From positions 500,361 through 564,360 of the forward strand of contig JAFDYV010000003.1 in assembly GCA_018267275.1 (NCBI GenBank): 64,000 nt of DNA, read 5' to 3'. Under the pieces are notes generated by a model. It did no database searches. It worked only from the letters and a program-made list of their open reading frames with translations, and was not told the origin of the DNA. The position numbers and the translations under genes are program-made. The stretch comes from Bacteroidota bacterium. GTDB taxonomy: Bacteria > Bacteroidota > Bacteroidia > Cytophagales > Cyclobacteriaceae. Of this stretch, positions 5,111-41,528 are shown one piece after another; the stretch's first letter is position 1, and the number at the start of each line of letters is the position of its first letter.

Positions 5111-7555
5111 ATGACCAAAAAATTCTTTTTCCTTCCGTTTTTATTTTTTGCCACCACAAGCTATGCCCAAGTTATTTCGGGCAAGATTGTCGATAGCCTA
5201 AAGCGCGAGCCAGTAGCCTTTGCGAACATCGTGCTGGCTGATGGCATACACGGCACCACCTCAGATATCGAAGGTAACTTTAAGCTCTCTGTGCCTGCAG
5301 GTTACCAGCAGGCCATCACCATTTCGCACGTGAGCTATCAAAAAACAAAATTGCCTTTGTCATTTTTTAACAAATATCGTGTGATTAAACTAAAGCCAAG
5401 CGAAATGGTGTTGAGTGAGGTAGTTGTGAAAGCAGGAGAAAATCCGGCCTTCCGCATTATTCGCAATGCCGTAAAAAATAAAAGCCGTAATAATCCGGAC
5501 AACTTAGAAAGCTACCAATATCATTCTTACAACAAGTTCATCATCAAACCCAGCGAGATGAGCGACCCCTACAAAAAAAGAGTAGACAGTTTACGAAATG
5601 GATCAATTGCTGCAACAAAAAAGCAAAAAGAGCTATTGCAGTGGGATAGCATCAGTAGCCGCATCCACTTCTTTATGACGGAATCAGTCACCGAAAAAAA
5701 AGTGATTAACCCCGGTCGTCAAAAAGAAACACTCATCGGCTTTAAAGCATCAGGCTTTAAAAGTCCGCTGTTTGCCAACGTGGCGACTGATTACCAACCC
5801 TTTTCATTTTACAATGACAAGATCTCACTGTTGGGAAAGGATTTCTTGAACCCCATCAGCAAAAACTCAGAGCAACGCTACGAATTTTACCTTACCGACA
5901 CCACCTACATTGAAAACGATACAGTGTATGTGATTCAATATGAACCCAAGCGCGGCAAGCTCATCACCGGCCTTAAGGGAATGGTGAGCATCAGCACCAA
6001 CGGCTGGGCCATCAAAAATATCATCGCATCCTCTTCGGATTCGCTTGCTTTAACCGGTATCCGCATTCAACAAAATTATGAACAGGTTAATGGCCAATGG
6101 TTTCCCGCACAGCTTAACACGGACATCGACTTTTACAATTTGAAGCAATTTGGCAGCTATATTATTGCGCAACACCGCAGCTTCATCAAAGATGTTAAAT
6201 TCAACCCTGCTTTAAACAAATCGGAGTTTGGTGACATCAAAGTTGACCTCTCACCCCCTGCCGGAGTATTGAATGAAGCAAACATTGAGAAATTCAGAAT
6301 TGCACCTTTGGATACAAAGGAGGCCAAGACGTACGTGACCATCGACTCTGCAATGCAGAAATTTCAATGGCTGGACAAAACCATGGAAGCGCTTGCCACC
6401 AACGCTCTTCCTATTGGACCTTTCGATTTCGACCTGACGCGATTGGTGCACATCAATCAATATGAAGGTTTTCGGTTGGGCGGTGGTTTGTACACCAGCA
6501 ACCGTTTTTTGACATGGCTGCGTGTAGGCGGGTATGGTGCGTATGGATTCAAAGACCAGCAATGGAAGTATGGTGCTGAGGTGCGTTTCAACCTCAATCC
6601 CAACCGCGATTTTGGGGTAACATTTCAGTACATCAACGATATCTACGAAACTGGTTATGCACACCAAAATGTACAGCGCGATTTTACCAATGCCAACGAA
6701 GGTCTGCGCAGACTGGTGAGCGAACGCTTCGATAAAATCGAATCGTACCGGGTAGATGTAAGTTACCGTGTACTACCGCGGGTACACGCCTCAGCCTTTG
6801 TGTCGAAAAACAACATAACACCTACTTACGATTATACCCTCACGTTGAACGGGGAGACACTCAATCGCTTTGCCATTGGCGAAACAGGCTTGGCCCTGCG
6901 TTATTCGGGAAGTGAAAACTATATGCAGATTTCTGGTAAAAAAGTACTGTTGGGCAGAGAGTGGCCGATGGTATCAATCGGCTACGCAAGGAGCATACAG
7001 GTGTGGGACGCGCAAAACTTTGATTACCAACGGCTGGATTTCTCCTCTAGGTTTCAGTTCAAGCACCGACCAAAAGGCAAGACGCGGTTGTTTGTTCATG
7101 CCGGCTGGGTGGACGGTGTTGCCCCCTATGGCCGGTTGTACAATGCCAGGGGCGCACAAGAAACACAAGCGATTTACGTTGACGAATATTTTCAAACCGT
7201 TGGTTTGTATGAGTTTGCCGCTTCGCGTTACGCCTCTGTTTTTTTCAATCACAATTTTGGCAATGTGTTCTATGATAATCGGTATAGCAAGCCTGAGTGG
7301 GTGGTTTACCACGCTTCGGGTATCGGTTGGCTTGACAATGCCAATGCCCATGCCAGTTCGCAAATCTCGTTGCAGTCTTTTGACAAAGGGTTTTTTGAAT
7401 CCGGCACCGGCTTCAACAACCTGCTTCGTTTCAAATATGCTAACGTGGCATACTTCGGTTTAGGTGCGGCTGTGTTTTACCGCTACGGAGCTTACCAATT
7501 TGAAAAGCAAACCAACAACCTGTTTTTTAGGGCCACGTTTAGTCTGGGATTCTGA
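5111..7555 (+). CDS. DUF5686 family outer-membrane protein with N-terminal carboxypeptidase-regulatory-like domain
   Basis: ISGKIVDS...EPVAFANI...GTTSDIEGNF...LSEVVV N-domain, INQYEGFRLG motif, beta-barrel-like C-terminus ending in Phe. Confidence 0.75.
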   Translation: MTKKFFFLPFLFFATTSYAQVISGKIVDSLKREPVAFANIVLADGIHGTTSDIEGNFKLSVPAGYQQAITISHVSYQKTKLPLSFFNKYRVIKLKPSEMVLSEVVVKAGENPAFRIIRNAVKNKSRNNPDNLESYQYHSYNKFIIKPSEMSDPYKKRVDSLRNGSIAATKKQKELLQWDSISSRIHFFMTESVTEKKVINPGRQKETLIGFKASGFKSPLFANVATDYQPFSFYNDKISLLGKDFLNPISKNSEQRYEFYLTDTTYIENDTVYVIQYEPKRGKLITGLKGMVSISTNGWAIKNIIASSSDSLALTGIRIQQNYEQVNGQWFPAQLNTDIDFYNLKQFGSYIIAQHRSFIKDVKFNPALNKSEFGDIKVDLSPPAGVLNEANIEKFRIAPLDTKEAKTYVTIDSAMQKFQWLDKTMEALATNALPIGPFDFDLTRLVHINQYEGFRLGGGLYTSNRFLTWLRVGGYGAYGFKDQQWKYGAEVRFNLNPNRDFGVTFQYINDIYETGYAHQNVQRDFTNANEGLRRLVSERFDKIESYRVDVSYRVLPRVHASAFVSKNNITPTYDYTLTLNGETLNRFAIGETGLALRYSGSENYMQISGKKVLLGREWPMVSIGYARSIQVWDAQNFDYQRLDFSSRFQFKHRPKGKTRLFVHAGWVDGVAPYGRLYNARGAQETQAIYVDEYFQTVGLYEFAASRYASVFFNHNFGNVFYDNRYSKPEWVVYHASGIGWLDNANAHASSQISLQSFDKGFFESGTGFNNLLRFKYANVAYFGLGAAVFYRYGAYQFEKQTNNLFFRATFSLGF

Positions 7556-34917: not shown

Positions 34918-37869
34918 TTATCGATCACCGCGCTCACTCCTGATTTGCAATGCGGCCATCATCGCCTCAGATGCATCTTCATATTTTTTGGCTAAGTCAT
35001 TTTCGCCATTTTGGTAGAGAGTGCGTTGCAACGCATTTAACACAAAAATGCTCTTACGCATGTCTGAAATGCCGCGACCTTCGCCCATCAAGTAGTTACC
35101 CATCGTGATTTCGCGGTCGCCCACCACCTTGGCCATTTCTATGGCCTTGTCTTTTTCGCCCACCTGAAACAGAAGGTCAATCGTTTCAGGTGCGGTGTGA
35201 TCGTATGGAATCACGTTATCAGGCATTTTGGCCAGGGAGAACATCAGCAATTTGTCCGCCTTTTCCATTTTACCTTCATCAATCAGTGCTTGCGCCAAGG
35301 CATTGAATGAACTGCGGTGGTTAACTACAAAACCACGGTAATCTTCGGTATAGTATATCTTAGGATTGTCTAATCCGCGGTAACGGAATTTATTCATCAT
35401 AATGTCCATGCTACGCTCAGTGTCCACCAAATAGTCGCGGTCTTTGCGTGGGTTGCGCACTGGCAATATGCGGTAAGCATTGCCCTCTTGAACGGCATAA
35501 GGACTTAAGTCGATATTGATTTGCGCCATAGAAGTATGGTTCAAATAAATCGGACGTTCCCAATTGTTGGTTACCAGTAAATCCAACAGGGCGAGGTCTT
35601 TCTTTTCAAGACCGCCTTTAGTCATGCGGATTTGCATTTGGTCTACCACCAGGCTATCCATGCCTGCAGGAATAATGCCTTTGGCCAACACGGCTTGTCT
35701 ATCAACATTCAGCGTGAACACACGGCTGGGCACTAGGTTGCGGCCGCCATCTCTCAACCGTTTGTCGTCCTTGGCAAGTAACTCGATGTACTGCTTTGCA
35801 TCAATGCTCGGGATTTTAAAATCAGCAAACGGCAAATAATCGTTCGGGCCGCCTTGTTGGTATTGTTTGAGCGAAAGAGAATATTTGAACGGCTCAGATT
35901 TATACGCCTTCCGCATAGTTTGATCAATGTACCAGTCAGTGTTATAATAGCTCAAAACAATCACACGTAGGTCATCACGAAAGCCTTCTGTTTCTTGAGC
36001 ATACCACAGTGGGAAAGTATCATTATCGCCACCGGTGAAGATGATGCCGTTTGGCGCACACGAATCTAAATAGTTGGTGGCCGAATCAACCGAGAAAAAG
36101 CGATCAGAACGGTTGTGGTCATCCCAGCCATCTTTTGCCATCAATGCAGGGGCAGACAAGCCCACCAACGTGGCTATGATAACAGCTGTTTTACCGGTTT
36201 TGAAAATATTCTGGAAAATTTCTGTAAGCCCAATTACTGCAAGACCAATCCACATCGCAAAGGCATAATAGCTACCCGCATAGATGTAATCACGCTCGCG
36301 CGGTTCAGTAGGTGGTGAGTTCAAATAGATCACGATTGCTACACCAAGCATGATAAACAAAAGTGCTACTACCGAGAAATTTTGTGTGTCTTTATTGAGT
36401 TGATAGAACATACCCACCAATCCTAAAATGAATGGGATCATGAAGAAGTTGTTGCGACCCTTGTTTTCAGCCAATTGCGGTGGTACTTTTTTAAACGAAT
36501 CGAGCGGGCTTAACCAATCGGCTCCCTGCTCATCACTTTCGCGACCAACAAAATTCCACATGAAATAACGGCCATACATCCAACCAATTTGGTGCTTGAA
36601 CATATACGCGAGGTTCTGCCCAAATGTGGGCTTCTGTCCTTCCTGTAAACCCATGATACTCTCATATGCATCTTTCCCCTCGGGGTACCACATACGCGGA
36701 AGAATCGTCATCTGGCTAGGATCGTACACATATTCAATTTTTTTATCTGTTGCCTCATAACGGTCTTTTCCTTTCGTCCACACCGTTTCGGTTTCTTTGT
36801 AATCGATGACCTGTGCAGTGAAGTATGCACCATACGCCAATGGGCGACTGCCATATTGCTCGCGCTTGAGGTAACGCACAAAGCTCATCACATCTTTGGG
36901 TGCATTTTCATTAATGAGCGTATCATAATCCGACCGGATCAAGATGGTGGTGTAAGAGGCATAGCCAATCAATACAAAAGTGGTAGCAAGCAAAAAGGTG
37001 TTCCAAACCGTGTAATTCTTCTTCTGGGTATAACGAATGCCAAACACCAGCGCGGCCACCAGCAATAAGGTAAAAAACAAAGCACCTGAACCGAACGGCA
37101 GGCCAAAAGTATTTACAAACGAAAGTTCAAATACGCCCGCTATGGTTGGCAAGCCTGGCACGATGAAATCATTGATGAACAACACAATGGCAACGCTGAT
37201 AAACAACGCAGTCACAATACCCCAAAACGTGGGTTTGAATTTTTTGAAATAATAGATCAGACCTAAGGCTGGCACCGTTACAAGGTTAAGCATGTGCACG
37301 CCAATGGAAAGACCCATCATGTAGGTTACCAACAACAGCCAACGATTGGCCTTACTTTCGTCTTCAATTACATCCCACTTTAATACGCCCCATACTACAA
37401 ACGCGGTAAAGAAAGATGACATCGCATAGACTTCCGCCTCTACTGCAGAGAACCAAAATGAATCGGAGAAGGTGTAGGCCAAAGCACCAACGGCACCTGC
37501 GCCCATCAGCATCCAAATTTGATTTTCCGTAAGGTCTTTCTCAGCCGGGTTGCCTATCATTTTGCGGCCAAATAGCACGATGGTCCAAAACAAAAACAGA
37601 ATGGTGAAAGCGCTTGCCAGTACGCTCATAAAGTTGATCCAGTAGGCCACTTGGGTGACATCGCCAAACGCGAGAAAGGAAAACATTCTACCCAACAACA
37701 AAAACAGAGGTGCCCCTGGTGGGTGTGGCACTTGTAGCTTATACGATACCGCAATAAACTCACCGCAGTCCCAGTAGCTGGCGGTTTCCTCCATGGTGAG
37801 CCAATATGTAATCAGGGCCACGGCAAACATGGCCCAACCGGTAATGTTGTTTATCTTTTGAAACTTCAT
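34918..37869 (-). CDS. DUF2723 family membrane protein (TMEM260-like, putative GT-C glycosyltransferase)
   Basis: ASYWDCGEFIA, VPHPPGAPLF, FWFSAVEAEVYA, RERDYIY, FTGGDNDTFPLWY. Confidence 0.88.
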   Translation of the reverse strand: MKFQKINNITGWAMFAVALITYWLTMEETASYWDCGEFIAVSYKLQVPHPPGAPLFLLLGRMFSFLAFGDVTQVAYWINFMSVLASAFTILFLFWTIVLFGRKMIGNPAEKDLTENQIWMLMGAGAVGALAYTFSDSFWFSAVEAEVYAMSSFFTAFVVWGVLKWDVIEDESKANRWLLLVTYMMGLSIGVHMLNLVTVPALGLIYYFKKFKPTFWGIVTALFISVAIVLFINDFIVPGLPTIAGVFELSFVNTFGLPFGSGALFFTLLLVAALVFGIRYTQKKNYTVWNTFLLATTFVLIGYASYTTILIRSDYDTLINENAPKDVMSFVRYLKREQYGSRPLAYGAYFTAQVIDYKETETVWTKGKDRYEATDKKIEYVYDPSQMTILPRMWYPEGKDAYESIMGLQEGQKPTFGQNLAYMFKHQIGWMYGRYFMWNFVGRESDEQGADWLSPLDSFKKVPPQLAENKGRNNFFMIPFILGLVGMFYQLNKDTQNFSVVALLFIMLGVAIVIYLNSPPTEPRERDYIYAGSYYAFAMWIGLAVIGLTEIFQNIFKTGKTAVIIATLVGLSAPALMAKDGWDDHNRSDRFFSVDSATNYLDSCAPNGIIFTGGDNDTFPLWYAQETEGFRDDLRVIVLSYYNTDWYIDQTMRKAYKSEPFKYSLSLKQYQQGGPNDYLPFADFKIPSIDAKQYIELLAKDDKRLRDGGRNLVPSRVFTLNVDRQAVLAKGIIPAGMDSLVVDQMQIRMTKGGLEKKDLALLDLLVTNNWERPIYLNHTSMAQINIDLSPYAVQEGNAYRILPVRNPRKDRDYLVDTERSMDIMMNKFRYRGLDNPKIYYTEDYRGFVVNHRSSFNALAQALIDEGKMEKADKLLMFSLAKMPDNVIPYDHTAPETIDLLFQVGEKDKAIEMAKVVGDREITMGNYLMGEGRGISDMRKSIFVLNALQRTLYQNGENDLAKKYEDASEAMMAALQIRSERGDR

Positions 37870-38014
37870 AATTGGAAATGAAGGGGCGAAAATAGGGAAA
37901 TAAACGCAGTTTTTGGTTCTTGGTTTAACAACGACTTTGAAAGGAAAATTATATCGACAAAGTCTTGTAATTATTCACTCGATTGGGATACTGATAGGCA
38001 GAAAAAAGAGTGCA

Positions 38015-38045
38015 TTTGTAAATTATCCACGAATCCCTACTTTTG
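38015..38045 (+). promoter_or_regulatory. Bacteroidota primary-sigma promoter (-33/-7)
   Basis: TTTG (38015-38018) - 19 nt - TACTTTTG (38038-38045) matches TTTG-N19-21-TAnnTTTG; 23 nt before ATG 38069. Confidence 0.7.
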
Positions 38046-38068
38046 CCGTGCTTCCGCGAATAAAAAGA

Positions 38069-38407
38069 ATGAAAAAAGAGGTAAAAAGGCATATTTCAAT
38101 GGCTGTTGGCATATTGGCCGTAGCTGTGATTGTGCTGACCCAATCTTTTTATCAGCCAACGCACATCACACAAAAGAAAGATGCAGGGACCGAGCAGACG
38201 GGCGCCAATAGCAAGACGGTTGTAAGCGCGCCATCTGATTTGAGCAACCCCACCAACGGTGGCGCTGTGCAATCGCATACCCCTGGCATCATTGACGAAA
38301 TATCGCCTAGCCCTAAGCCTGAAAAAATCTCACAGGTGGTGCGTAAAACCACCATTCAGTTTTTCAAAACACTGTTCCGGGCATTTATCTCGCCCAACGC
38401 GCCCTAA
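38069..38407 (+). CDS. Small membrane-anchored protein upstream of secDF; candidate translation-arrest leader peptide
   Basis: 112 aa; basic N-terminus, hydrophobic ISMAVGILAVAVIVL, low-complexity linker, C-terminus FFKTLFRAFISPNAP-stop. Confidence 0.65.
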   Translation: MKKEVKRHISMAVGILAVAVIVLTQSFYQPTHITQKKDAGTEQTGANSKTVVSAPSDLSNPTNGGAVQSHTPGIIDEISPSPKPEKISQVVRKTTIQFFKTLFRAFISPNAP

Positions 38408-38504
38408 TTGTAGCCTTTAATTCTCAAGTTCAACAATCTGCCGTATTGGGGGTTGTCTTCTGTTTATCTATTTATTAATTCTCAATTTTCTTACTCATCA
38501 TTTT

Positions 38505-41500
38505 ATGAAAAACAAAGGAGTCGTAGTAGTACTCACCGTACTCATCACATTGTTGTGTTTGTACTACTTGTCATTCACATTTATTTCGCGCGGCATCCGC
38601 GAAGATGCCATCAAATATGCCACTTCAAAAGATGGATCGGTTGATCTTTCCAAGAAGCAACGTTACCTCGATTCGCTCTGGAACAAGCCCGTGCTCAACC
38701 TGTTTGGTGCTGAGTACACCTACAAGCAAATCAAAGAATCTGAGCTAAACCTTGGGCTTGACTTGCAAGGCGGTATGCACGTGGTGTTAGAAATTTCACC
38801 TGCAGATATCATCCGTGGGTTGAGCGACAACAACCAAGACCCTGCATTTATTGCTGCATTGCAAAAGGCCAATGAACTAGAAAAGAAAAGCACCGACAGC
38901 TACAGCAGTCTGTTCTACCAAGCGTATAAAGAAGCGAATCCCAACGCAAAGCTTGCTCCTTTGTTTGCGTCAACGGCTAACAAAGAGCGTGTGAAAATTA
39001 CTGATGCCGATGACAAGGTGCTAAAGTTCTTAGATGAAGAAATTGAAAACGCGATTGAACGATCATTCACCATTTTGAAGACGCGTATCGATCAGTTTGG
39101 AACTTCACAACCCAACATTCAACGTCTGCAAGGCACCAAGCGTATTCAGATTGAGATTCCCGGAGCCGATAACCCACAGCGCGTGCGAAAATTATTGCAA
39201 AGCGCAGCTCGCTTAGAGTTTTGGGAAGTGGTAGAGCCTGCCATGGATATGCAATTAAGCACAGCACTGACGGCTATTAACCAAAAGTTGATCAAAGAAC
39301 AAAACGAGAAGAAAACTACCGATTTAGGTAGCACGAGCACGACTGCACCAGAAAAGGCAGCGGCAAAAACTGGTACCACCAAATCTGCGCTTGAACAAGC
39401 GTTGAGCAAAGTGGATAGCAGCGGTACCAACAAGTTAGATTCATTGCGTGCAGCTACTACTTCTCCGCTTTTTGCGTTGAGCAATCCGCCCATGGCATTC
39501 CGCTATGACCTGAAAGACACTTCAGCGATCAACCAAATATTGAAGCGTGAAGACATCAAGGCGCTATTCCCCAGAAACATATTTGCACGCTGGGATGTAA
39601 AAGCAGACAACCAAACCGTGCCGGGTGCCGAGCTATTGCAGTTAAACTTTTTGACTGCGAACCGAAGCGGCAAGCCGCTGTTGAGTGGCGAAGTAATCAA
39701 TGATGCTCGTTTGGCCAGCGATGAATTTGGTCGCCCGGCTGTGAGCATGACCATGAATGCGTCTGGTTCAAAAGTATGGGCGAAGGTGACGGCTGCAGCT
39801 TCTGCAAAACAACCTCGCGGAAGAATTGCCATTGTACTCGACAACTATGTGTATACTGCTCCCAGCGTAAATGGCGAAATTCCAAATGGTAACTCGCAAA
39901 TCAGCGGAAACTTCACGAGCGAAGAAGCAAAAGATTTGGCGAACGTGTTGAAGGCAGGATCATTGCCCGCTCCTACTCGTATTGTGGAGAGCGCGATCGT
40001 GGGTGCATCGCTGGGTAAAGTAGCGCAGAACCAAGGTTTCATCTCTATGGCATGTGGTTTGGCCATTGTAGTCATCTTCATGGTAGCCTATTACTCAAAA
40101 GGCGGCTGGGTGGCTAACCTGGCTTTGCTGTTCAACATCTTCTTTATTTTGGGGATTCTGGCACAGCCTACCATTGGTGCTGCACTCACATTGCCGGGTA
40201 TTGCAGGTATCGTGCTTACCATGGGTATGGCAGTAGACGCAAACGTATTGATTTACGAGCGCATTAAGGAAGAGCAACGCCAAGGCCGAAAATTACTCGA
40301 TGCCATCCGCAAAGGATATGAACGCGCGTTCTCATCTATCTTCGACTCTAACATCACAACGTTTTTGACTGCGATGTTCTTGTTTATTTTTGGACAAGGG
40401 CCATTGAGAGGATTTGCTGTGGTATTGATGATCGGTATCGCCACTTCATTCTTCTCAGCAGTTTACATTTCACGTGTCATCATTGAGTGGATGACCCGCA
40501 AAGGCGAAGAATCGAAAATCAGTTTTGAAACCGGATTGGCCAGCGGTGTGCGCGAGCGCAAGCACTTCAACTTTATCGGTAACCGCAAAATCGCCTACAT
40601 TTTCTCAAGCACGGTAATTGTAATTGGATTTGTATTAATTGCGATACAAGGTTTGAACTTAGGTGTAGACTTCAAAGGCGGCCGTTCATACAAGGTAACT
40701 TTCAACAAGCCAGTAGTAGCGACTGACATGAGGGTTTCACTTGCGCAAAGTTTCCAAAACTCAAGCACTGAAGTAAAGAACTTTGACAGCGACCGTGTAA
40801 TGAAGGTGACCACTTCTTACCTGATCGATGACGAAACAGATGCAGCTGACGATAAAGTGCGCGCTGCCTTGATTGAAGGTGTGAAAAAATTCAGCGGCCT
40901 TGAGTACGCTGAAAATGACGCCACTGTGGATGACAAACATTTTGCAATCTCGTCTTCCTCGAAAGTAGGCGCTACCATTGCAGATGATATCAAAGATTCG
41001 GCTTTTGAAGCAGGCTTGTATTCTATTATCGCAATTTTCTTGTATATCCTAGTTCGCTTTAGAAAATGGCAATACAGCACAGGTGCGATTGTTGCGTTGA
41101 TCCACGATTCGTTATTTGTATTTGCTACTTTCGGTATTTGTCGTGCGATTGGTATTTCTTTTGAAATTGACCAAGTGTTTGTAGCAGCGGTGCTGACCGT
41201 AATTGGTTACTCGATCAACGACACGGTAATTATCTTTGACCGTATCCGTGAGTTTATCAACTTCGGTTCATCGCACGATCGCAAGCAGATTTTTAACGAT
41301 GCGATCAATAGCACGCTGAGCCGAACGCTCATTACCTCAGGCACAACATTGATTGTGGTAGTAGTGTTGCTATTCTTCGGTGGCGAAGTATTGCGAGGCT
41401 TTTCATTTGCGTTGTTCATCGGCATTGTGATCGGTACTTACTCGTCCATCTTTATTGCCGCACCAATTGTGATTGACTTCGACAAGAAGGAAGAGGCAAA

Positions 41501-41528
41501 GCCAGAGTTGAAACCAGCAAAAGCATAG
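38505..41528 (+). CDS. secDF: Protein translocase subunit SecDF (fused)
   Basis: LNLGLDLQGGM, RIDQFG..QPNIQ, LKAGSLPAP, MAVDANVLIYERI, GVDFKGGR, GYSINDTVIIFDRIRE. Confidence 0.97.
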   Translation: MKNKGVVVVLTVLITLLCLYYLSFTFISRGIREDAIKYATSKDGSVDLSKKQRYLDSLWNKPVLNLFGAEYTYKQIKESELNLGLDLQGGMHVVLEISPADIIRGLSDNNQDPAFIAALQKANELEKKSTDSYSSLFYQAYKEANPNAKLAPLFASTANKERVKITDADDKVLKFLDEEIENAIERSFTILKTRIDQFGTSQPNIQRLQGTKRIQIEIPGADNPQRVRKLLQSAARLEFWEVVEPAMDMQLSTALTAINQKLIKEQNEKKTTDLGSTSTTAPEKAAAKTGTTKSALEQALSKVDSSGTNKLDSLRAATTSPLFALSNPPMAFRYDLKDTSAINQILKREDIKALFPRNIFARWDVKADNQTVPGAELLQLNFLTANRSGKPLLSGEVINDARLASDEFGRPAVSMTMNASGSKVWAKVTAAASAKQPRGRIAIVLDNYVYTAPSVNGEIPNGNSQISGNFTSEEAKDLANVLKAGSLPAPTRIVESAIVGASLGKVAQNQGFISMACGLAIVVIFMVAYYSKGGWVANLALLFNIFFILGILAQPTIGAALTLPGIAGIVLTMGMAVDANVLIYERIKEEQRQGRKLLDAIRKGYERAFSSIFDSNITTFLTAMFLFIFGQGPLRGFAVVLMIGIATSFFSAVYISRVIIEWMTRKGEESKISFETGLASGVRERKHFNFIGNRKIAYIFSSTVIVIGFVLIAIQGLNLGVDFKGGRSYKVTFNKPVVATDMRVSLAQSFQNSSTEVKNFDSDRVMKVTTSYLIDDETDAADDKVRAALIEGVKKFSGLEYAENDATVDDKHFAISSSSKVGATIADDIKDSAFEAGLYSIIAIFLYILVRFRKWQYSTGAIVALIHDSLFVFATFGICRAIGISFEIDQVFVAAVLTVIGYSINDTVIIFDRIREFINFGSSHDRKQIFNDAINSTLSRTLITSGTTLIVVVVLLFFGGEVLRGFSFALFIGIVIGTYSSIFIAAPIVIDFDKKEEAKPELKPAKA

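Follow-up and report, generated by a model that had tools for sequence, protein, structure and literature searches.

The open reading frame (uORF) that precedes secDF in this 64,000-nucleotide window, by which we mean the whole stretch of DNA analysed, is almost certainly an orthologue of the published Bacteroidota uDF_NAP-stop arrest peptides. The overall explanation that we favour, with a probability of roughly 0.7, is that the peptide belongs to this family, would arrest its ribosome at termination until released by Sec activity, and would thereby raise SecDF synthesis. Because the family has already been published, the find is genuine without being new, and as one more orthologue among about 400 the locus changes little by itself. 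The family matters since it is the sole proposed Sec-feedback sensor in Bacteroidota, and its arrest takes place at termination rather than elongation, in a phylum where Shine-Dalgarno unmasking is unlikely to apply. New descriptive points are the tight spacing of about 89 aa between membrane anchor and arrest site, the usual CCC codon of the terminal proline, and the nearly G-free leader of secDF.

Organization of the uORF-secDF locus

The features of the locus are listed below with their coordinates in the window.

38015..38018, + strand: TTTG, a -33-like promoter element 19 nt 5' of the -7 box
38038..38045, + strand: TACTTTTG (TAnnTTTG), a -7-like promoter element, recognized by sequence and conserved upstream of orthologue uORFs
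38069..38407, + strand: uORF of 112 aa plus TAA, with ATG at 38069; assigned to the uDF_NAP-stop family
38099..38149, + strand: hydrophobic signal-anchor or signal segment MAVGILAVAVIVLTQSF, residues 11-27, predicted from hydropathy and preceded by the basic KKEVKRH
38150..38356, + strand: polar linker of drifting sequence and constant length (orthologue identity falls to 14-25%)
38357..38404, + strand: conserved C-terminal arrest region QFFKTLFRAFISPNAP, in which I-[S/A]-P-N-A-P is invariant among orthologues
38405..38407, + strand: TAA stop, the expected A-site codon of the stalled ribosome, judged from a homologue's toeprint
38408..38504, + strand: 97-nt untranslated spacer between uORF and secDF, delimited by sequence
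38463..38504, + strand: G-free 42-nt leader adjoining the secDF ATG (last spacer G at 38462)
38505..41528, + strand: fused secDF of 1007 aa (Pfam SecD_SecF_C, 1.7e-74), the presumed regulated target

The first-pass annotation of this DNA had described a 112-aa ORF with a basic N-terminus, a signal/TM segment, a linker and a NAP-stop end, followed by secDF after 97 nt. Both the ORF and this distance were found as described. The uORF product reads MKKEVKRHISMAVGILAVAVIVLTQSFYQPT...QFFKTLFRAFISPNAP and begins with a basic N-terminus, continues through a single hydrophobic segment and a divergent linker, and closes with the C-terminal ...QFFKTLFRAFISPNAP-TAA. Its best 17-residue window spans residues 8-24 with a mean Kyte-Doolittle value of 2.36, and the hydrophobic stretch extends to about residue 27; the localisation signal was called by hydropathy calculation. 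The charge ahead of this segment is +4/-1, and according to the positive-inside rule the peptide is thus predicted to adopt an N-in/C-out topology. A hydrophobic segment was found in 17 of the 17 loci examined as well as in 94 wider orthologues (median score 2.38). Profile searches of Pfam, NCBIfam and PDB with the uORF peptide (20 family members including orthologues) gave zero matches. The downstream product contains the SecD_SecF_C, SecDF_P1_head, SecD_1st and Sec_GG domains.

Assignment to the uDF_NAP-stop family

The uDF_NAP-stop family was described by Fujiwara, Tsuji, Yoshida, Takada & Chiba (2024, Nat Commun 15:2711; PMC10987492) and comprises 396 uORFs from 400 Bacteroidota genomes, located upstream of secDF and possessing an N-terminal localisation signal and a C-terminal N-A-P-stop (PMC10987492). 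The earlier suspicion that the class might have been reported before was therefore correct, and searching the literature turned up no subsequent studies of NAP-stop peptides. The tested member from Echinicola vietnamensis (Cyclobacteriaceae) yielded 30-50% peptidyl-tRNA in the E. coli PURE system and more than 50% in the B. subtilis PURE system (PMC10987492). Its arrest was abolished by N123A, P125A or stop removal and hence requires N(-3), P(-1) and the stop codon, while toeprinting placed the stop codon in the A site (PMC10987492). The peptide ends IVAPNAP-TAA, as read for its last seven codons from primer KFpr_23.

The window ORF agrees with the family in its same-strand position before secDF, its ...ISPNAP-TAA end, its predicted localisation signal, its Bacteroidota origin and its sequence clustering. 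It also falls within the length of about 110-125 aa, shares the P-N-A-P-stop ending, derives, like the tested member, from Cyclobacteriaceae, and retains the N(-3), P(-1) and stop needed by the E. vietnamensis homologue. The two peptides differ at position -5 (Ser here, Ala there), at position -6 (Ile here, Val there) and in length (112 aa versus 125 aa); arrest of the window sequence is predicted from the homologue. The original proposal of an arrest peptide acting at Pro-stop before secDF thus matches uDF_NAP-stop, whose E. vietnamensis member stalls in vitro with the stop codon in the A site.

Conservation and selection of the uORF

Selection acts on the uORF. Each of the 16 informative secDF loci of Cytophagales type, which were sampled through SecDF similarity alone and without bias toward the uORF, carries a uORF ending in I[S/A]PNAP-stop 68-140 nt before secDF, and all 11 database homologues of the peptide (63-99% identical) end FISPNAP. 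The I[S/A]PNAP codons differ synonymously among loci and the residues are invariant. Meanwhile, the window uORF aligns with the uORFs of the closest secDF loci, which are Cyclobacteriaceae/Cytophagales MAGs. A conserved terminus and TM segment joined by a drifting linker, which the first-pass annotation had anticipated across Cytophagales, is therefore what was observed, with linker identity as low as 14-25%. Within the linker, the motifs SQSFY (after the anchor) and SAPSD are kept among closer relatives.

A genome-wide search with a degenerate DNA pattern for the motif gave at least 120 matches versus about 13 expected by chance, and among the matches listed secDF came after the motif in 109 of 111 informative cases. 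Across 100 motif-selected loci, conservation also extended outside the search pattern, namely to an aromatic residue or Leu at -15 and -14, Lys/Arg/Gln at -13, Thr at -12, Arg at -9 and Ile/Val at -7.

The distance from the end of the anchor to the C-terminus is 88 aa in the window and has a median of 89 aa with a 5-95% range of 83-96 in the 94 orthologues, as raw counts. CCC serves as the terminal Pro codon in 68% of orthologues compared with 14% of secDF Pro codons (likewise raw counts), and this bias points to a constraint at the level of translation. The stop codons of the orthologues are TAA in 46, TAG in 33 and TGA in 21 cases; since all three are used, no single release factor is implied. 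At another locus, L101, a second NAP-stop ORF lies ahead of a gene for a different polytopic membrane protein of the CitMHS family.

Promoter and co-transcription

The TTTG-N19-TACTTTTG arrangement upstream of the uORF corresponds, in our reading, to the Bacteroidota -33/-7 consensus, and the closest relative, L001, shows the identical TTTG-N19/20-TAnnTTTG arrangement. The 100 nt ahead of the uORF start contain TAnnTTTG in 84 of 94 orthologues versus 5% of shuffles, and the element mostly ends 5-20 nt before the uORF ATG. The same search in the spacers found TAnnTTTG in merely 1 of 94 orthologues. Hence, both parts of the earlier reading, a consensus promoter driving the ORF and no obvious promoter between uORF and secDF, hold up. 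A sigma-70 promoter/terminator scan of 37800-38700 was uninformative for Bacteroidota promoters.

RNA evidence came from Logan contigs of lake metatranscriptomes, which show the joining of uORF to secDF rather than per-base depth or transcript ends. Contigs of a relative about 97% identical to the window run unbroken from 38020 or 38070 through the uORF and the spacer into secDF, and depth is zero in the interval that separates the uORF from the divergent gene on its upstream side. No drop is visible from uORF to secDF, which counts against the favoured explanation, although contig depth is a poor measure of this. A further point against it is that one contig begins at 38020, about 30 nt earlier than a transcript initiated from the TACTTTTG box should start. 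The promoter pattern and the joined contigs support a single transcript that covers the uORF and secDF and originates from the promoter upstream of the uORF.

Proposed arrest at termination and its release by Sec

As the sequence and the RNA contigs support, the proposed mechanism would begin with the transcription of uORF and secDF together from the single upstream promoter. The basic N-terminus and the hydrophobic segment are predicted to lead the nascent chain to the Sec translocon in the N-in/C-out orientation. When translation reaches the end of the uORF, the last ~16 residues (FFKTLFRAFISPNAP) would occupy the upper exit tunnel, Pro-tRNA would fill the P site, and the A site would contain the stop codon. 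The release factor would then be inhibited in freeing the peptide, giving the termination-step arrest that was seen in vitro for the homologue. Against a strong physiological stall, the heterologous arrest was partial (30-50% in E. coli PURE), and Pro-stop endings are by their nature slow in termination. We nevertheless consider it probable that the uORF peptide arrests at the termination stage in its native host.

Export of the ~88-residue segment past the anchor would pull on the chain and relieve the arrest, so that slow export would leave the ribosome on the stop codon for longer. A prolonged stall would in turn permit more SecDF synthesis from the shared transcript. The topology and the length of the exported segment are compatible with such Sec-monitoring release, and we regard a Sec-feedback role as somewhat better than an even bet; Sec sensing and control of secDF are what we infer for all members of the family.

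Comparison with other arrest peptides

TnaC, the leader of the E. coli tna operon, arrests likewise at a stop codon after Pro. It resembles the window peptide in its termination-step arrest with peptidyl-tRNA(Pro) in the P site and the stop in the A site (as judged here from the homologue), in a long untranslated spacer before the regulated gene, and in a C>G region around and after the stop. On the other hand, TnaC is a 24-aa cytosolic peptide induced by free tryptophan, which uses UGA/RF2 and has a proven block of Rho loading, whereas the window peptide is predicted to be exported or anchored and has no known ligand, its orthologues use all three stops, and a part for Rho is a guess.

SecM, VemP and ApdA/ApdP share with the window peptide a uORF adjoining a sec gene, an export signal, a long spacer, a Pro-containing C-terminal arrest motif and a presumed release by export force. 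These peptides undergo elongation arrest (Pro-tRNA in the A site, or RAPP-type PTC inhibition), and their output is an exposed Shine-Dalgarno sequence. In contrast, the arrest of NAP-stop peptides is at termination, no SD-type or start masking was detected in silico, and the anchor-to-arrest spacing is unusually narrow.

Stop-dependent arrest peptides beside sec genes also include uA_NSP-stop (Sphingobacteriaceae, upstream of secA) and uDF_DGMK-stop (Clostridia) (PMC10987492). The former shares the N-x-P-stop ending with uDF_NAP-stop, but both differ in downstream gene or taxon and bear no overall sequence similarity to it, and DGMK-stop is without a terminal proline. PepNL, SpeFL and MsrDL, for which cryo-EM structures exist, are similar in that the nascent chain blocks accommodation of the release factor GGQ at the stop codon. 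They are, however, short cytosolic leaders of unrelated sequence, controlled by read-through or small molecules and not by export.

Possible coupling of the stall to secDF expression

The options for coupling are narrowed by the single upstream promoter, the G-free leader, a hairpin without a U-tract, the lack of a selected pairing between uORF and secDF start, the 89-residue ruler and the CCC bias. The spacer, whose median length is 90 nt in orthologues, has in the window a T content of 0.48, the highest of the upstream regions there, and gave zero matches in an Rfam search. G makes up 3.9% of positions -35 to -1 of secDF in 100 orthologues as compared with 16.3% in upstream regions of the same loci that served as controls (n = 395; p = 5e-40). 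The spacer is poorest in G at 55-97 nt past the stop, beyond the ribosome footprint, and this counts against the favoured explanation.

Considering that the phylum largely lacks Shine-Dalgarno initiation and that the secDF leader is G-free and predicted to be open, a ribosome waiting at the stop codon might exert its effect on the transcript. Our preferred guess is that it would shield the C>G transcript of the 97-nt spacer from Rho or nuclease beside the stop codon in the manner of TnaC. The C/G ratio peaks at 2.0 in a 60-nt stretch whose centre lies 30 nt before the uORF stop, and it is 1.8 at the stop and 1.5-1.7 up to +60. This composition is compatible with a rut-like site, but it is in part dictated by the motif's Ser/Pro/Ala codons. 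A TnaC-like output for secDF is a tentative suggestion on these grounds. Equally tentative is the broader idea that secDF is controlled by a route undescribed for Sec-monitoring peptides, either at the transcript level (a TnaC-like block of Rho or nuclease) or by holding the mRNA at the translocon, with the ~89-residue ruler and the terminal CCC as its parts.

Alternatively, the stalled ribosome, or the queue behind it, might melt an RNA structure that hides the secDF start region and so increase initiation. Such unmasking is the mechanism of SecM, MifM and VemP, and also of uDF_RQH_Enterobacterales (PMC10987492). The orthologue spacers are on average more structured than their shuffles (mean z = -1.5; 29% below -2), and the end of their hairpin lies at a fairly fixed distance of about 42 nt (IQR 36-47) from the secDF ATG. 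Initiation in Bacteroidota is regarded as highly responsive to mRNA structure. In the minimum free energy folds of the window and of L001, moreover, GUUUUUCA, which covers the QFFK codons, pairs with UGAAAAAC at the secDF start. However, placing a ribosome footprint on the stop codon left the predicted accessibility of the secDF start unchanged (0.63 versus 0.62), and the outcome was the same in 16 orthologues. The native uORF codons paired with the secDF leader or start no better than synonymous recodings did (mean z from -0.09 to +0.18 in four windows). With recoding z values near 0, the GUUUUUCA/UGAAAAAC pairing is best explained by Phe codons meeting Lys/Asn codons. Furthermore, the last ~35-42 nt before the secDF ATG contain practically no G and should be open according to prediction, the core hairpins of the orthologues start about 20-30 nt past the uORF stop and are thus out of reach for a ribosome on the stop codon, and the spacer of the window itself is without significant structure (z = -0.32). 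Unmasking is therefore unlikely in our estimation, and the caution in the first-pass annotation that an SD-based mechanism may not apply is in line with these in silico folding and recoding tests.

Another conceivable output is that the stop-codon stall, instead of inducing secDF, keeps the ribosome-mRNA complex at the membrane through the anchor, so that the 12-helix SecDF would be made at the translocon, with mRNA targeting of the kind seen for XBP1u. The fixed anchor-to-arrest distance (median 89, 5-95% range 83-96), kept in spite of a linker identity of 14-25%, suggests a geometric requirement that would suit this arrangement. So would a secDF leader that appears constitutively open and in which folding and recoding tests found no switch element, as well as the NAP-stop ORF ahead of the CitMHS-family gene at L101. 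Yet the length constraint could equally serve force sensing, and the characterised uORFs of such architecture beside sec or yidC genes are all feedback regulators. We know of no bacterial precedent for stall-based mRNA tethering and consider this output improbable.

The proposal of attenuation through an intrinsic terminator, in which alternative pairings near the stop codon would decide between read-through and a hairpin with a U-run before secDF, fared worse still. A hairpin with dG at or below -6 kcal/mol is present in 86% of orthologue spacers, T-rich runs follow a few of them (e.g. in L009 and L062), and the window spacer is very T-rich. But the 12 nt after the hairpins contain 5.1 T, which equals the spacer background, and at least 8 T in 12% of cases alone (99 orthologue spacers). 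The particular pairings named in the earlier annotation, ccctaat with attgggg versus caac with gttg before a U-run, are not conserved and do not exceed chance, because 66 of 200 shuffles fold as well as the window spacer (z = -0.32). Both hits of the terminator scan (38335-38356), which overlap, fall inside the uORF coding sequence and none in the spacer, and the RNA contigs run through the spacer. Termination of this kind is accordingly very improbable.

The least probable alternative is an ordinary small membrane or periplasmic protein such as a YajC-like accessory subunit of SecDF, with NAP as a protein motif and no arrest or regulation in vivo: yajC, encoding a single-span product of about 110 aa, lies ahead of secDF in many bacteria, the homologue showed partial arrest in vitro in heterologous systems, and SQSFY and SAPSD are kept among closer relatives, but the YajC identity was rejected, as neither YajC nor any other Pfam/NCBIfam profile matched the window peptide or 20 orthologues even at E <= 1 and PDB gave no match either, whereas conservation is centred on the last 16 residues and stops exactly at the stop codon, the terminal Pro is predominantly CCC, and the arrest of the homologue depends on the stop codon.

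Organisation of the secDF locus

The elements of the locus are listed below. All those that the first-pass annotation had described (ORF, promoter, linker, C-terminus, 97-nt spacer and secDF) were borne out.

Features of the secDF locus in the window
34918-37869, - strand: divergent upstream neighbour, TMEM260-like glycosyltransferase
38015-38018 and 38038-38045: promoter elements TTTG and TACTTTTG, 19 nt between them
38069-38407, + strand: uORF, ATG start, 112 codons plus TAA; N-terminus MKKEVKRHIS, then hydrophobic stretch MAVGILAVAVIVLTQSF, polar linker and C-terminal end QFFKTLFRAFISPNAP
38408-38504: spacer of 97 nt, ending at secDF
38505-41528, + strand: secDF, fused product of 1007 aa with SecD_SecF_C, SecDF_P1_head, SecD_1st and Sec_GG domains

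TTTG and TACTTTTG, so spaced, match the -33/-7 layout of Bacteroidota promoters. The best 17-residue window of the uORF peptide had a mean Kyte-Doolittle hydropathy of 2.36, and the charge preceding it was +4/-1. A second in-frame ATG (Met11) is present at 38099; several homologue gene calls in databases begin there (102-104 aa) and lose the basic N-terminus. Because of the alignment of distant orthologues and the promoter position, we favour Met1 at 38069 as the probable true start. A consensus scan also flagged a terminator-like hairpin at 38335-38356 (+; GGTGGTGCGTAAAACCACC then ATTCAGTTTT) inside the coding sequence, where the codons specify VVRKTTIQFF. The nearest relative, L001, shows its 3' arm and T-rich tail (AAAACCACCATTCAGTTTTT), more distant orthologues encode other residues at this position, and the codons themselves probably account for the hairpin.

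The uORF belongs to the published uDF_NAP-stop family

A survey of some 30,000 genomes by Fujiwara et al. (2024; PMC10987492) looked for uORFs that precede secA, secDF or yidC. Their uDF_NAP-stop family comprises 396 uORFs from 400 genomes, mainly of three Bacteroidota orders, and is defined by a localisation signal at the N-terminus together with N-A-P-stop at the C-terminus (PMC10987492). The member assayed was that of Echinicola vietnamensis (PMC10987492), which belongs to the Cyclobacteriaceae, as do the closest relatives of the window. The share of its products retained as peptidyl-tRNA was about 30-50% in the PURE system of E. coli and >50% in that of B. subtilis; by toeprinting, the A site was occupied by the stop codon, and arrest was lowered by mutations at -3 and -1 and abolished without the stop codon (PMC10987492). 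As read from a primer in the supplement, the E. vietnamensis peptide ends in I-V-A-P-N-A-P-TAA (PMC10987492), versus F-I-S-P-N-A-P-TAA in the window, where both arrest-required residues are present. Sharing position, ending, signal and required residues, the uORF therefore has every sequence-level trait of uDF_NAP-stop. At this level it is a member of the family, and arrest is predicted, in support of the main interpretation of the first-pass annotation, an arrest peptide for secDF. Its guess that the class had perhaps already been reported was also right: the class is not new, since its 2024 description already covers hundreds of members, one of them assayed from the same bacterial family (PMC10987492). 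The in vivo reporter of that study was inapplicable to stop-dependent peptides, and downstream regulation was assayed for a RAPP-type peptide only, which is different from NAP-stop (PMC10987492). No more recent publication on NAP-stop peptides turned up in our literature search.

Conservation of the NAP-stop ending

A protein search gave 11 homologues (63-99% identity), and all 11 ended in FISPNAP. For a uORF-unbiased sample, 20 loci were picked by SecDF similarity alone; one was cut at a contig end and three were from Sphingobacteriaceae, leaving 16 Cytophagales-type loci. This amounts to the comparison across Cytophagales proposed at first pass: the I-[S/A]-P-N-A-P-stop ending was kept in 16/16 while the linker drifted, the uORFs being 111-127 aa long (one with a GTG start) and located 68-140 nt upstream of secDF. 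Overall identity to the window peptide fell to 14-25% and the last six residues stayed constant, with their codons varying freely at synonymous sites (16 Cytophagales-type loci plus the window). Thus, selection acts on the peptide and not on the RNA. The three Sphingobacteriaceae/Mucilaginibacter secDF loci (L017, L018 and L019) had no uORF and carried folA upstream instead, a dihydrofolate-reductase-like ORF that stops ~115 nt 5' of secDF. This absence fits the patchy family distribution reported, and Sphingobacteriaceae carry a secA-linked NSP-stop peptide (PMC10987492).

A degenerate DNA pattern for [L/F]-F-x3-I-[S/A]-P-N-A-P-stop, run over the genome collection, gave at least 120 matches, against ~13 estimated by chance under uniform base composition. 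Among the matches listed, secDF was the next gene in 109 of the 111 with sufficient downstream sequence, and C-terminal conservation spanned ~16 residues (100 loci). Conserved outside the search pattern were aromatic/Leu at -15 and -14, Lys/Arg/Gln at -13, Thr at -12, Arg at -9 and Ile/Val at -7; the 99-100% frequencies of Leu(-11) and Phe(-10) are not independent evidence because the pattern imposed both. A stretch of about this length would be expected to take up the whole upper exit tunnel.

A possible length ruler and the terminal codons

In orthologues among the matches listed, the stretch between the last residue of the hydrophobic segment and the C-terminus had a median length of 89 aa (5-95% range 83-96). 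This spacing (38150-38404 in the window, and in orthologues) held though the linker is only 14-25% identical, and it looks like a length ruler. Most published Sec-type candidates have long, variable spacers (PMC10987492), whereas the NAP-stop orthologues here keep a near-constant ~89 aa.

Among the matches listed, the terminal Pro codon (38402-38404 in the window) was CCC in 68 of 100 loci, kinship ignored, and the secDF genes at these loci used CCC for 14% of their prolines. The bias was weaker at Pro(-4) (CCC 41%), and all four codons were evenly used at Ala(-2). These values hint at a contribution to arrest from the codon or tRNA in the P site, or from the base that precedes the stop. The stop codons of these orthologues were TAA (46), TAG (33) and TGA (21); as all three are used, arrest does not depend on a single release factor.

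Promoter and co-transcription

In 84 of 94 orthologues among the matches listed (5% of shuffles), the 100 nt preceding the uORF start contained TAnnTTTG, which mostly ended 5-20 nt 5' of the ATG; leaders are therefore short. Only one of these 94 had the motif within the spacer, in agreement with the earlier remark that no obvious promoter intervenes. Lake metatranscriptome contigs of a ~97% identical relative were unbroken across the uORF and spacer into secDF, starting at 38020 in one run and 38070 in another; their depth, which is unable to reveal attenuation, fell to zero over the interval that separates the uORF from its divergent neighbour. This supports co-transcription of uORF and secDF and speaks against secDF having a promoter of its own; one within the spacer is excluded by the rarity of the motif and the joined contigs. 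Judged by the TACTTTTG box, transcription should begin ~30 nt downstream of the contig start at 38020. Contigs of the divergent TMEM260-like gene stop at 37866-37868, at its start codon (37867-37869, -), a hint that its leader is very short or missing.

Possible routes from the stall to secDF

Three standard output options were examined, in 17 loci first and then in 100 orthologous loci among the matches listed. With bases -15 to +12 around the stop kept unpaired to mimic a ribosome footprint, the secDF start region was predicted to be just as accessible (in the window, 0.63 versus 0.62), and the outcome was similar for all 17 loci. In four 20-codon windows of the uORF, native codons had no advantage over synonymous recodings in pairing with the secDF leader/start (mean z -0.09 to +0.18). 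Moreover, G made up 3.9% of the 35 nt that directly precede the secDF ATG (100 loci, among the matches listed) versus 16.3% in 395 control upstream regions from the same loci (p = 5e-40), and the final 42 nt in the window (38463-38504) contain no G; such a leader can hardly be sequestered. All three results speak against unmasking, whose Shine-Dalgarno form the first-pass annotation had already doubted. Enriched in the secDF leader were AAATTTTA/AATTTTAA near -20 to -10 and AATCAAT near -30 to -20 (100 loci, among the matches listed), and the window has related TTAATTCTCAATTTTC-like repeats.

Among the matches listed, orthologue spacers were more structured than shuffles (mean z = -1.5; 29% below -2). 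The typical hairpin (orthologous loci L021-L140, variable sequence) had a core beginning 20-30 nt past the stop, its 3' end lay 42 nt (median; IQR 36-47) upstream of the secDF ATG, and no U-tract followed it (mean 5.1 T per 12 nt, equal to background). The fold of the window spacer was not significant (z = -0.32; 66/200 shuffles equally good), and the weak alternative pairings noted at first pass were not conserved.

As unmasking, an intrinsic terminator and a spacer promoter are unsupported, the option left is that the stall would act on the transcript and not on start-site access. TnaC, the classic Pro-stop arrest peptide, acts via a block of Rho. In orthologues among the matches listed, the C/G ratio peaked at 2.0 just 5' of the uORF stop and stayed at 1.5-1.7 on to +60, a profile resembling the rut-adjacent arrangement of tnaC. 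The data are compatible with a TnaC-like, Rho-blocking output on the secDF transcript, which we tentatively regard as the likeliest route (probability about 0.3). That the stall instead keeps the secDF mRNA at the translocon seems improbable; such tethering would fit the open secDF leader and the anchor-to-arrest length ruler. A YajC-like accessory protein was rejected, with no profile match in any of 20 family members. Bacteroidota are a phylum largely without Shine-Dalgarno-led initiation, and the comparative constraints make the question of the coupling mechanism there more sharply testable.

A second NAP-stop ORF

In the orthologous locus L101, from a Cyclobacteriaceae MAG, the first NAP-stop uORF ends at 2600 and a second NAP-stop ORF (5772-6225, +) lies directly 3' of secDF, with an N-terminal hydrophobic segment and the end ...FVNLFGALFRAIISPNAP-TAG. 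A CitMHS-family transporter gene (Pfam 1.3e-20) is found 88 nt downstream. Because the second ORF precedes this gene, the NAP-stop motif may also serve membrane-protein genes other than secDF.
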